Both the position numbers and the translations under genes were made by a program. A stretch of DNA of 64,000 bases from an uncultured Candidatus Saccharibacteria bacterium (GTDB lineage: Bacteria > Patescibacteriota > Saccharimonadia > Saccharimonadales > AWTP1-31): contig CALCZR010000060.1 in assembly GCA_937903325.1 (NCBI GenBank), forward strand, positions 146,404-210,403. The letters run 5' to 3'. Positions 54,698 to 56,525 of the stretch are shown piece by piece; the stretch's first letter is position 1; each line of letters opens with the position of its first letter. The notes under the pieces are model-generated. The model worked only from the letters and a program-made list of their open reading frames with translations. It was not told where the DNA came from and did not search any database.

Positions 54698-54764
54698 ACA
54701 GAGACGATTCGTCTCTGTTAAAACATAACCAGGATTGGAGGGCCATCGTGGAACTTATCGCAAC
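54698..54764 (-). repeat. cassette-array repeat R4 (box + different terminator hairpin)
   Basis: ACAGAGACG-att-CGTCTCTGT (54698-54718), AAAACATAACCAGGATT, and a perfect core at 54737-54764. Confidence 0.85.
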
Positions 54765-54769
54765 TAGAT

Positions 54770-55192
54770 TTAGGTCGCGAGTTGCTCAAGCATGAGTATT
54801 GCTTTGGCGCAATCTCCTTCTTCAATCTCATCACAAGGAGGTGCAGCAGCTCGAAAGTTTAGTGCGTCAACAATGAATGTGGCGACATCACCTTCGTAGG
54901 TGTGTTCAACGGCACCAAACTGCGGAATCGCATCTTGTACAACACCAAGTAGTTGATCACCCGTGAAATCCTGGTCTACTGGGGCAGAATCTTCAGGATC
55001 CTCAGGAGTTAAAAAGTATGTCATTGCTACACTACCTGCAAGTCGACTACAGAAACTACGTAGTCTTTCAACTTTTTCGTCGTCATCCATAAAAAATGGA
55101 GCAGTATCTCCAACAAGGCGTACGCATGCAGCTATGGTTGCAAGTTCTCCGTCGCCCTGTGTAACTAAATTGCCGTTTTTGTAATATGCCAT
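54770..55192 (-). CDS. cassette 4: 140-aa acidic hypothetical protein
   Basis: ORF between R4 and R5; its stop lies 5 nt from the box; it has its own promoter. Confidence 0.5.
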   Translation of the reverse strand: MAYYKNGNLVTQGDGELATIAACVRLVGDTAPFFMDDDEKVERLRSFCSRLAGSVAMTYFLTPEDPEDSAPVDQDFTGDQLLGVVQDAIPQFGAVEHTYEGDVATFIVDALNFRAAAPPCDEIEEGDCAKAILMLEQLAT

Positions 55193-55199
55193 TCACACT

Positions 55200-55228
55200 A
55201 GTGTAGAGAGCCACCAATCGTAACTCAA
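55200..55228 (-). promoter_or_regulatory. promoter of cassette 4 (near-leaderless)
   Basis: Minus strand TTGAGT-N17-TACACT, with the -10 ending 7 nt before the ATG. The -35 again lies in the CTTATGCTTG tail of the module. Confidence 0.45.
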
Positions 55229-55304
55229 GCATAAGAAAAACTCCCCGGACTGAGGAGTTTAAACATAATCGAGATTGGAGGGCCATCGTAGAGCTTATCG
55301 CAAC
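55227..55304 (-). repeat. cassette-array repeat R5 (box + terminator hairpin)
   Basis: AAGCATAAG, AAAAACTCCCC-ggact-GAGGAGTTT (55236-55260), AAACATAATCGAGATT, core 55277-55304 (GGAGGGCCATCGTAGAGCTTATCGCAAC). Confidence 0.85.
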
Positions 55305-55359
55305 CAGCATTCAAACAATTCCTATACCTCGCATCGCTCCGAATTAGGGCTTCCTGCGT

Positions 55360-56151
55360 TTAAACGTGACCTGATCCGATCGTTATTCCATGGGGCGATA
55401 ACAAGAACAATACAAGAATGAGTAAAGTCGTAAGCACCAGACCAATTATAGGCGTTTGTAAAGTCAGACTATGTGGTTTGGTTTTTCCTTTCTTATAGTC
55501 TGCAATTGGCGTAAAAATACCTATAGTGGCGGTGCCGATGATACTCAGGAATGAGACCGTCTGAGAATGATCTAGAACGCTCTCGCTAATCAAATAAATT
55601 AACACTAGTATGCCTGAGCCAATTAACCAGGGATACATACCAAGCTGAAAGAACTCTTTTTTACTGGTAACATACACGCTATTGAGCTGACCAAATATTT
55701 TAGGTAGAAGATAGTAGGTACCAAGCGCACCAAATGCACAAACCAAGGCAGTAATTACAAAGTTAGCATGAATTAAATCGAGCACCTGACCCGTGTCTCC
55801 GCTTTTAGCAAATGGAGCAATAATAAAATATCCAAAGCCTATTTCTGCGCTCAAGAACCCAAACCACATACGTACTAAGCTCCAGAAGCCACTAAGCTTA
55901 GTGCGACAAAACATAATGACGGCAACTCCGCTCAGAAGACTAAAAAGCGGGCCAGCTGCTGCAACTAAGATCTGGTGGTTCTTACTAACGCCATCGGCTT
56001 GACCGACGTATGCTGGGTGAAATAAACCCTGCTTATCAAGTATTAGAGCACTGACAAAGTGGGCTAGTTCATGGAATGTTGTAGCAAGAAGTCCTGCCAA
56101 AACAAACGCTAAACTAGAGTTGATAAGGAGTTGTTTTGTTGAAGTTTTCAC
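55360..56151 (-). CDS. cassette 5: polytopic membrane HExxH protein (M50/DUF3267-like putative peptidase)
   Basis: FHELAHF followed about 35 aa later by AAAGPLFS; about 7 TM helices; GTG start with AAGGAA SD. Confidence 0.55.
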   Translation of the reverse strand: MKTSTKQLLINSSLAFVLAGLLATTFHELAHFVSALILDKQGLFHPAYVGQADGVSKNHQILVAAAGPLFSLLSGVAVIMFCRTKLSGFWSLVRMWFGFLSAEIGFGYFIIAPFAKSGDTGQVLDLIHANFVITALVCAFGALGTYYLLPKIFGQLNSVYVTSKKEFFQLGMYPWLIGSGILVLIYLISESVLDHSQTVSFLSIIGTATIGIFTPIADYKKGKTKPHSLTLQTPIIGLVLTTLLILVLFLLSPHGITIGSGHV

Positions 56152-56244
56152 TTAGATTCCTTACTGAAATTAATTTTAACTATAACGTATATTTATATAA
56201 ATAACCATTAGAGCTATAGTTATCGTTATAAAGAAGGAAATTGA

Positions 56245-56457
56245 ATGGCAAAAGCAAAAAAATCACAGATAACAACCTACCGATCATATGCACAAATGTT
56301 CACAGTAATTGCTGCAGTATTAACAGGATTACTTTTTGCGCTGACTGATATATTAGGCATCAGCTCATCCCTAGCCGATCAACTGGGAAATATTTGTATC
56401 ATTGCGACTGTGCTGGGGGGAATTGTAATGGGCCTACTATACTCCTTCGACAAATAA
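56245..56457 (+). CDS. 70-aa two-helix hydrophobic peptide divergent from the HExxH protein
   Basis: AAGGAA-N5-ATG; basic N-terminus MAKAKKSQ, then two hydrophobic helices. Its stop abuts the R6 hairpin. Confidence 0.45.
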   Translation: MAKAKKSQITTYRSYAQMFTVIAAVLTGLLFALTDILGISSSLADQLGNICIIATVLGGIVMGLLYSFDK

Positions 56458-56525
56458 AAACTCCCCGTTTCGGAGGAGTTTAAACATTACCGGGATTGGA
56501 GGGCCACCGTGGAGCTAATCGCAAC
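56456..56525 (-). repeat. cassette-array repeat R6 (box + terminator hairpin)
   Basis: AAAAACTCCCC-gtttc-GGAGGAGTTT, AAACATTACCGGGATT, core 56498-56525 (GGAGGGCCACCGTGGAGCTAATCGCAAC). Confidence 0.85.

Follow-up and report, generated by a model that had tools for sequence, protein, structure and literature searches.

A tRNA-Lys-derived box with a codon-like arm as the probable junction of single-gene cassettes in Saccharibacteria

Introduction

Integron cassettes are promoterless and expressed from a common promoter, and their attC sites are imperfect inverted repeats (R''-L'' ... L'-R') that form a hairpin and carry AAC...GTT core sites; in clusters of attC sites lacking an integrase (CALINs) such arrays occur alone, so an adjacent integrase is not required. 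Other recombination sites lie inside coding sequence, as do sfx of the shufflon, gix of Gin/Cin, attP of the SSV-type integrases and the Tn7 target at the 3' end of glmS. The tycheposon islands of Prochlorococcus are seeded at tRNA genes and built by successive integrations (bioRxiv 10.1101/2020.12.28.424599). Here we describe a repeated sequence box in a 64,000-nucleotide (nt) stretch of DNA, hereafter the window, from an uncultured Candidatus Saccharibacteria bacterium (assembly GCA_937903325.1, contig CALCZR010000060.1, positions 146,404 to 210,403 of the forward strand). The whole of the evidence makes it probable that the box is a cassette junction at a tRNA-Lys-seeded island, joined to an arm that varies as codons do. 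Literature searches returned no description of this element.

The window holds six copies (R1 to R6), all on the + strand between 52.99 and 56.53 kb, with the G of their GGAGGG motif at 52992, 53463, 54286, 54737, 55277 and 56498, respectively. The full layout, seen in R2, R4, R5 and R6, comprises a minus-strand terminator hairpin, a left arm of ~15 nt, the 10-nt core TGGAGGGCCA and a conserved right arm; the hairpin is missing from R1 and R3.

This arrangement resembles integron arrays and CALINs in its tandem cassettes of the same orientation, in a conserved repeat placed 3' of each open reading frame (ORF), inside which some ORFs end, in a cargo of toxin-antitoxin and small genes of no assigned function, and in arrays without an adjacent integrase. 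It differs in that the site is a conserved sequence and not a hairpin, with no R''/L''-L'/R' symmetry, that the cassettes have their own terminators and, by eye, apparent extended -10 promoters of their own, and that the anchoring site is a tRNA 3' end, not attI. As at sfx, gix, the SSV-type attP and glmS, where ribosomes read the site, variation here follows codon phase; those sites lie in an identifiable long gene, whereas here no gene reads into the core. Shared with tycheposon islands (bioRxiv 10.1101/2020.12.28.424599) are, in the loci that contain the tRNA, a tRNA-adjacent island with scattered partial copies of the tRNA 3' end and accessory cargo, and the displacement of older insertions away from the tRNA by newer ones. 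Unlike tycheposons, most units consist of one gene and measure 0.4-1.3 kb, the segment identical to the tRNA covers 10 (to 18) nt as against ~40 nt and is always joined to a second conserved, non-tRNA-like arm with codon-like variation, and no integrase or integrase remnant was seen in the 184 loci considered here.

Materials and methods

A pattern scan of one genome per species gave 69 loci, 64 of them with real boxes, almost all from metagenome-assembled genomes of Saccharibacteria and with one perfect copy in cultured Ktedonospora formicarum; a metagenome scan gave at least 119 stretches. Anchoring on the 10-nt core inside these loci recovered more divergent copies, beyond the requirements of the search pattern, and the total among the matches listed was 355 boxes (321 unique) in 184 loci, individual loci being numbered with the prefix L. 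Subsets of 136 copies, 308 distinct arms and 303 anchored copies were used for entropy, frame tests and indels, respectively.

Results

The core TGGAGGGCCA is the reverse complement of ...UGGCCCUCCA-3', the acceptor end of tRNA-Lys(CTT) with its CCA, the match extending over 355 boxes and 57 copies of the tRNA; in L044, a tRNA-Lys(CTT) gene ends with these 10 nt. Conservation begins exactly at the base complementary to A76, and identity with one T-stem variant of the tRNA (TCTGGGAC) extends to position 16 (16/18 nt). A true tRNA-Lys(CTT) is present in 55 of the 184 box loci, where box and tRNA have the same orientation and the same side in 102 of 102 pairs, with the boxes 3' of the tRNA; downstream of the tRNA gene, on its strand, the left arm and hairpin known from the boxes usually come next. 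The complementarity of GGAGG to the tRNA acceptor stem means that this motif is no independent evidence of a ribosome-binding site.

Some of these features would also fit retro-mobility, in which UGGAGGGCCA on a + strand RNA is the primer-binding site for the tRNA-Lys 3' end, as in long terminal repeat retroelements, and tRNA-primed reverse transcription of the cassettes puts the left arm directly after the tRNA CCA. The onset of conservation at the CCA complement, the 16/18 nt identity with one tRNA variant and the left arm directly following the tRNA gene all suit this view, but ordinary DNA recombination at the tRNA 3' end yields the same facts, and the view leaves the codon-like arm unexplained; the 25 Pfam families that recur most often in 150 neighbours do not include a reverse transcriptase, and no + strand promoter is evident. 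We regard it as extremely unlikely.

Box loci other than the window also hold a structured RNA-like element of ~165 nt (L044 777-941, 1843-2007 and 4581-4745; also L040, L085, L088 and L102), the 3' end of which is a tRNA-Lys acceptor and T stem with CCA and the 'T loop' of which holds three inserted hairpins. It shows compensatory changes at 22 of 40 predicted pairs across eight copies, has no Rfam or ARAGORN call, and is placed between boxes like a cassette or directly after a true tRNA.

Each box follows a different minus-strand cargo gene. Minus-strand genes make up 64 of 73 right-hand neighbours, their ends lying 18-100 nt from the box, and in a larger set 28% of cargo genes stop at codons embedded in the box itself (arm positions 18-20, 27-29 and 33-35). 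The cargo is diverse, including toxin-antitoxin pairs, NUDIX, NYN, SDR, HAD and AbiEii-like proteins and heliorhodopsin; the only recurrently shared genes, for FolD, Mur ligase, a racemase and a response regulator, lie on the tRNA side of the boxes, and no other conserved neighbouring 'platform' gene emerged. Where loci share blocks of homology, 29% of the internal block ends fall within +/-10 nt of the core, compared with 1.2% at random, and peak at -6..-1 (103 ends) and +6..+29 (78 ends). This clustering indicates that the cassettes are modular and that the core is their junction. Arms of one array are as different as arms of different genomes (identity 0.64 within an array, 0.66 between loci), indicating that arrays are built from a shared pool and not by local duplication; by the same figures, concerted evolution within arrays was rejected.

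Taken together, the tRNA match, the polarity, the differing cargo and the breaks of homology at the core indicate an attachment-type junction in an integron-like layout, and we consider it very likely that the box is a tRNA-Lys-derived junction of this type between modular single-gene cassettes. The initial annotation of the window overlooked this identity; the box is not primarily a small gene, and the argument that protein-binding sites do not normally vary with codon phase does not reckon with the box being a junction for recombination that derives from the 3' end of a tRNA. Other classes of repeat were rejected: a clustered regularly interspaced short palindromic repeat (CRISPR)-like array on spacings of 451-1294 nt filled with genes, and repetitive extragenic palindromic or bacterial interspersed mosaic elements (REP/BIME) and miniature inverted-repeat transposable elements (MITE) on the lack of a palindromic unit and of terminal inverted repeats. 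A phage or plasmid origin was rejected on the lack of any box match in the viral, plasmid and phage collections IMG/VR, PLSDB and INPHARED.

A hairpin with a T tract is found at 149 of 313 boxes, and the box always lies between the stop codon of a cargo gene and its terminator. It might therefore be read as an RNA element in the 3' untranslated region of the minus-strand cargo mRNAs, the tRNA-like ...UGGCCCUCCA acting as a processing or stability signal (RNase- or CCA-related) or as a mimic of the anti-Shine-Dalgarno sequence (CCCUCC). The exact tRNA 3' terminus in the core and the start of conservation at the A76 complement are consistent with such a role, but the box shows no conserved RNA fold (z-scores near 0 except at the terminator), no covariation and no Rfam match at gathering score or at E<=1, and a known RNA family was rejected. 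By inspection the arm forms no T-arm or minihelix, and it pairs with tRNA-Lys no better than shuffles do. An RNA element on the cargo strand would moreover leave the period-3 pattern and in-phase stops of the opposite strand, described below, without explanation, and we think it quite unlikely.

Two main classes of left arm carry AAGCATAAGC or its reverse complement GCTTATGCTT at a similar distance from the core, and further recurrent classes carry GTATCTGTT...TT and ATTGTGGTTnTATATTAC. The left arm of the window (TTATGTTTAAA, minus strand) resembles, at 9 of 11 positions, what we take to be the XerD arm of dif.

The initial annotation had noticed that substitutions between the window copies fall on a 3-nt phase. 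A recount agrees that 7 of the 9 changes in R5 and R6, relative to the R3/R4 consensus, share one phase: those in R5 lie at -8, -5, 13, 16 and 28 from the G of GGAGGG, all 1 mod 3, and those in R6 at -10, 9, 16 and 19, two of four being 1 mod 3. The chance probability, put at 1-3%, is 0.8% for one phase by binomial recalculation and ~2.5% allowing for three, and the synonymous and nonsynonymous codon readings of R5 and R6 proved correct. The bias holds in the larger set (321 unique boxes, 184 loci), where an even spread over the phases was not seen, and frameshifting indels are rare. The single arm indel among 303 anchored copies is that of window R2, which had been described as truncated on its right side; it carries instead an 8-nt insertion (TCTATTGG) within the right arm that breaks the frame.

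Two frames sharing wobble positions, one on each strand, had seemed equally compatible with these data. Codon-aware testing of both strands on the 308 distinct arms singles out the + frame, TGG AGG GCC AyC GTn, over the minus frame that had been the annotation's first choice. Differing codons in the + frame have a mean BLOSUM62 score of +1.02, where column shuffling gives -0.28 +/- 0.41 and no shuffle scores as high (0/400); their synonymous fraction is 0.30 as compared with 0.15, and 5 stops are observed where 182 are expected; the minus frame reaches a BLOSUM62 of 0.54 (p=0.03), and the remaining four frames give no signal or a negative one. Entropy by codon position is highest at the third (1.19), then the first (1.00) and the second (0.62). 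The constrained frame reads W-R-A-(I/T)-V-x-x-I-(A/S/T)-T-x-hydrophobic, in which codon 5 is GTN with all four third bases (GTA 170, GTG 108, GTC 18, GTT 12), codon 7 is NNT, codon 8 is ATC, ATT or ATA, with ATG just 7 times, codon 10 is ACT or ACC and codon 12 is NTN, hydrophobic in 95%.

Beyond the arm, the frame ends with some regularity. Stops are depleted in codons 4-12 (5 against 18.7 expected from position-specific base frequencies, P=2e-4) and enriched in codons 20-28 (279 against 201.5, P=1e-7), the ratios of observed to expected stops in the other two + frames being ~1. The median length is 23 codons, with 55% of copies at 20-27, and the length regularity of 57%, compared with 24% in codon shuffles, is independent of the end position and frame of the cargo gene, so that a link between the two was rejected; a frame preference of the cargo genes is only apparent and vanishes once genes with box-embedded stops are excluded. 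One subfamily has a common ...S-x-x-L-H-I... tail in intergenic DNA. Conservative change is also seen in L144, a divergent 12-box array on metagenome contig Ga0209023_10001463 whose left arm also differs (CAAAGTGATCAGTAT), in which a hydrophobic version of the peptide, WRAIV[VLM][AG][IMV][AVT]T, is kept through multi-base codon changes; GTG stands at codon 5 in 10 of 11 copies, the remaining one having ATG at codon 4. On these statistics we place the chances that the arm is under genuine protein-level selection at about even.

In the version that follows from the initial annotation, each box would be an independent small gene in which GGAGG is the Shine-Dalgarno (SD) element, a GTG six nt on is the start and the product is a peptide of 9-25 residues, and this gene would be the reason for the conservation of the box. 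The annotation's account of the window copies is accurate as regards the GGAGGG-N5-GTG spacing, the GTA of R5 and the lengths of the mini-ORFs (9-21 codons from GTG); an ideal SD-GTG geometry is found in 5 of the 6 copies of the window and in 10 of the 11 copies of L144, and the frame statistics fit a gene of this kind too. The 'textbook SD-start pair' is nevertheless not conserved: GTG lies six nt after GGAGG in 108 of 321 copies (34%), 200 copies have GTA, GTC or GTT, and length regularity and constraints are equal in GTA and GTG copies. The invariant TGGAGGGCCA is accounted for by the tRNA and not by an SD, the boxes track the tRNA gene and the cargo 3' ends in distribution and polarity, and the peptide matches no protein family. 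The hidden short frame is thus partly supported, for the plus strand, its SD-GTG start is not a general feature, and the small gene as a whole is unlikely.

A start-less, in-frame and length-limited frame, conserved and then variable, would also be accounted for if the arm were the 3'-terminal coding segment of a gene spanning the core, for example the recombinase of an autonomous element, in the SSV manner. Recombination at the core would then swap arms between that gene and the arrays, and each arm would periodically be selected as a C-terminal tail. That the geometry exists is seen in L048 and L131, where a serine recombinase ORF runs antisense through a tRNA gene. However, a long ORF enters the core in frame in 0 of 355 boxes, the longest upstream open stretches (66-101 codons) running through terminators, and a profile of 100 peptides run against 5.8 billion proteins gave 158 word-sharing candidates of which none reached E<=10, so that no parent protein carrying the peptide was found there; IMG/VR, PLSDB and phage records likewise hold no box match. 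With neither a long ORF into the core nor a protein with the peptide, the arm is unlikely to be the tail of a site-spanning gene, and we consider this alternative very unlikely.

Another route into the frame is suggested by the prfB-type +1 frameshift cassette, which consists of an SD-like element, a 3-nt spacer, a shift codon and an in-frame stop. Around half of the boxes read GGAGGG-CCA-YCG-TAG, and all have NTG at -2..0, in a neighbouring frame. Unlike in prfB, a +1 shift from the GGA-GGG frame would miss the constrained frame, and the likeness may be an accident of the tRNA sequence. A tentative and on balance doubtful proposal is that each junction encodes a translated micro-protein of ~20-27 residues, reached unconventionally, with a conserved N-terminal R-A-I/T-V-D-A-I-A-T-x-hydrophobic segment and a free tail; one candidate route would be initiation at the core-overlapping NTG, with the internal GGAGG promoting a +1 shift at CGU-R-GAN. 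If this were true, the recombination core taken from the tRNA would also serve to recode translation, and the peptide would have a part in cassette maintenance or recombination.

In the window each box sits directly 3' of a minus-strand ORF, and four minus-strand Rho-independent terminators (a GC-rich hairpin with a T tract) lie left of R2, R4, R5 and R6. R1 (52991-53025) is the distal end of the array; without left arm or hairpin, it abuts the start of an EamA transporter gene and has the core CGGAGGGCCA (52991-53000), with C in place of T at -1, and a right arm at 53001-53025. R2 (53423-53499) has its hairpin at 53423-53446, left arm at 53447-53461 and core at 53462-53471, and R3 (54285-54319) has a core at 54285-54294, an arm at 54295-54319 and a degenerate left arm. 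R4 (54697-54770) comprises hairpin 54697-54719, left arm 54720-54735, core 54736-54745 and arm 54746-54770; R5 (55238-55310) hairpin 55238-55260, left arm 55261-55275, core 55276-55285 and arm 55286-55310; and R6 (56458-56531) hairpin 56458-56481, left arm 56482-56496, core 56497-56506 and arm 56507-56531. Hairpins vary in sequence from copy to copy whereas the box is conserved; that of R4 is unrelated while the R4 box is identical to R3, indicating that terminator and box are separate modules. The start-less codon-like frame of R4 (54736-54795, + strand) reads WRAIVELIATRFRSRVAQA and then TGA, and the equivalent + strand frames are at 52991-53068 (R1), 53462-53524 (R2), 54285-54326 (R3), 55276-55347 (R5) and 56497-56553 (R6).

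The cassette genes between the boxes are, from R1 to R5, 53084-53377 (97 amino acids (aa), no Pfam family), 53504-54127 (207 aa, NYN domain), 54304-54666 (120 aa, no family) and 54770-55192 (140 aa, no family), all on the minus strand; the stop codon of the third is a TAA embedded in R3 (arm positions 18-20) and that of the fourth a TAA embedded in R4 (positions 33-35). The R5-R6 cassette (55360-56457) holds a 263-aa membrane protein (55360-56151, minus) and a 70-aa ORF (56245-56457, plus), and the gene 3'-adjacent to R6 (56557-57675, minus; 372 aa, no family) is the last to end at a box. The terminator T tract merges with an extended -10-like motif (TGTTATACT) on the minus strand at 54686-54696 and at the equivalent sites, ~25 nt upstream of the SD and ATG of the next gene, and by eye TGnTAnnnT recurs in many loci; the overlap points to very compact terminator-promoter units.

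To the right of the array lie a Y-family polymerase gene with IMS domains (in 57901-60118), an ORF (59414-60118) that by eye alone resembles an SOS-response-associated peptidase, and a cluster of small genes (61615-63076) with a weak match, below the Pfam threshold, to a terminase-small-subunit/HTH protein. GC content falls here to 0.40-0.43, and this region may be a separate mobile one.

Outside the metagenome-assembled genomes, the cultured Chloroflexota isolate Ktedonospora formicarum SOSP1-1 (NZ_BNJF01000002.1) has a perfect box with a 26-codon frame (L053 3243-3275). The box is found 3' of an 83-aa fragment with an AadA_C domain, an IS240-type DDE fragment is close by, and there is no tRNA within 8 kb.

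Discussion

Our explanation as a whole, which we hold to be probable, is of a flexible island in Saccharibacteria for which the 3' end of a tRNA-Lys(CTT) gene would be the seed. The left arm of the box is variable and often carries a Rho-independent terminator that ends the right-hand gene and insulates the left-hand one, and the conserved right arm of ~25 nt travels with the cargo gene that ends next to it. Cassettes would be exchanged by recombination within the core; as no recombinase gene is seen in the sequence around the boxes, the enzyme may act in trans, or recombination may instead use the boxes as short stretches of anchoring homology. The right arm and the next ~35 nt behave like a short + strand reading frame, convergent with the cargo gene, with a polar-then-hydrophobic tail and a selected stop after ~20-27 codons, and ribosomes may read this frame.

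Several observations count against parts of this explanation. As regards the junction, the window contains no tRNA-Lys(CTT) anywhere in its 64 kb; its sole tRNA-Lys, tRNA-Lys(UUU) at 38969-39045 (+), is in the opposite orientation and 14 kb from the array. A motif scan of 1.18 Mb of box loci, including the window, found no tyrosine-recombinase signature, the 25 commonest Pfam families of 150 neighbours include no integrase, and recombinases were limited to a large serine recombinase, seen in two loci (L048 and L131) and belonging to a separate tRNA-Gln element. The junction also has none of the dyad symmetry expected of classical core sites (best axis 0.36-0.38 complementary pairs, random 0.25), and an attC or dyad-symmetric core site was rejected on this axis, on the lack of covariation and on the lack, by inspection, of an RYYYAAC/GTTRRRY pair. 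As regards the frame, there is no conserved start, GTG occurring in only 34% of copies, and in 241 of 321 copies (75%) the stretch from the nearest preceding in-frame stop to W contains no in-frame ATG, GTG or TTG; this stop is often 0-2 codons from W, in a few copies a stop replaces W, and no + strand promoter is evident around the boxes. The conserved third positions T19 and A25 reflect constraint at the nucleotide level and not coding, the tails of homologous cassettes show no third-position excess (48/54/44), and the P values treat copies as independent and are therefore optimistic, ~55 of 305 tails falling in small homologous clusters.

Two further features were noted. The tRNA-Lys(UUU) of the window ends ...CTGGGCCCTCCA, one base off the box core, and has no flanking boxes. 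The serine recombinase (L048 1797-3548, minus; L131 137-1894, minus) is 583-586 aa long with Resolvase, Recombinase and Zn ribbon domains. Its final ~27 codons overlap a tRNA-Gln(CTG) gene in antisense, and there is a Replic_Relax gene nearby; in appearance this is a recombinase gene extending across its own attachment site in a tRNA gene.

The points against the frame are at home in a serious, though distinctly less probable, alternative, that the box is purely a recombination or protein-binding site with nothing translated, its 3-nt phase and open frame being coincidences of the tRNA part and of contact spacing. The recombinase contacts would be CGT (10-12), TAT (19-21), GCAAC (23-27) and T33, and the conserved blocks, with third positions T19 and A25 among them, can indeed be read as such a split site. 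Spacing is fixed absolutely, even 3n indels being absent, the first six 'codons' are mostly accounted for by tRNA identity, and neither the missing start codon nor the tails without third-position bias would be a difficulty. What a binding site does not explain is the frame-specific avoidance of stops (P=2e-4) followed by their excess in codons 20-28 (P=1e-7), the regularity of length, and the conservative multi-base replacements, such as ATG/CTT/ATA/GTG/GTC/ATC at codon 8 of L144 and NTN at codon 12. We prefer the junction with a codon-like arm.

Saccharibacteria are tiny epibionts with reduced genomes, and the ways in which they acquire and swap accessory genes are poorly understood. With the conserved 35-nt junction as a simple search sequence, their flexible gene pool can be located in any metagenome, and the few strains that can be cultivated have a defined place at which to engineer insertions; the perfect copy in the cultured Ktedonospora isolate (L053) makes experiments feasible. 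No integrase was seen near the boxes, which suggests a route of recombination that has yet to be described. It is unusual for an attachment site to be constrained as codons are and yet lack a start codon, and if the frame is translated, a single site would be at once a tRNA copy, a crossover segment and a coding sequence.

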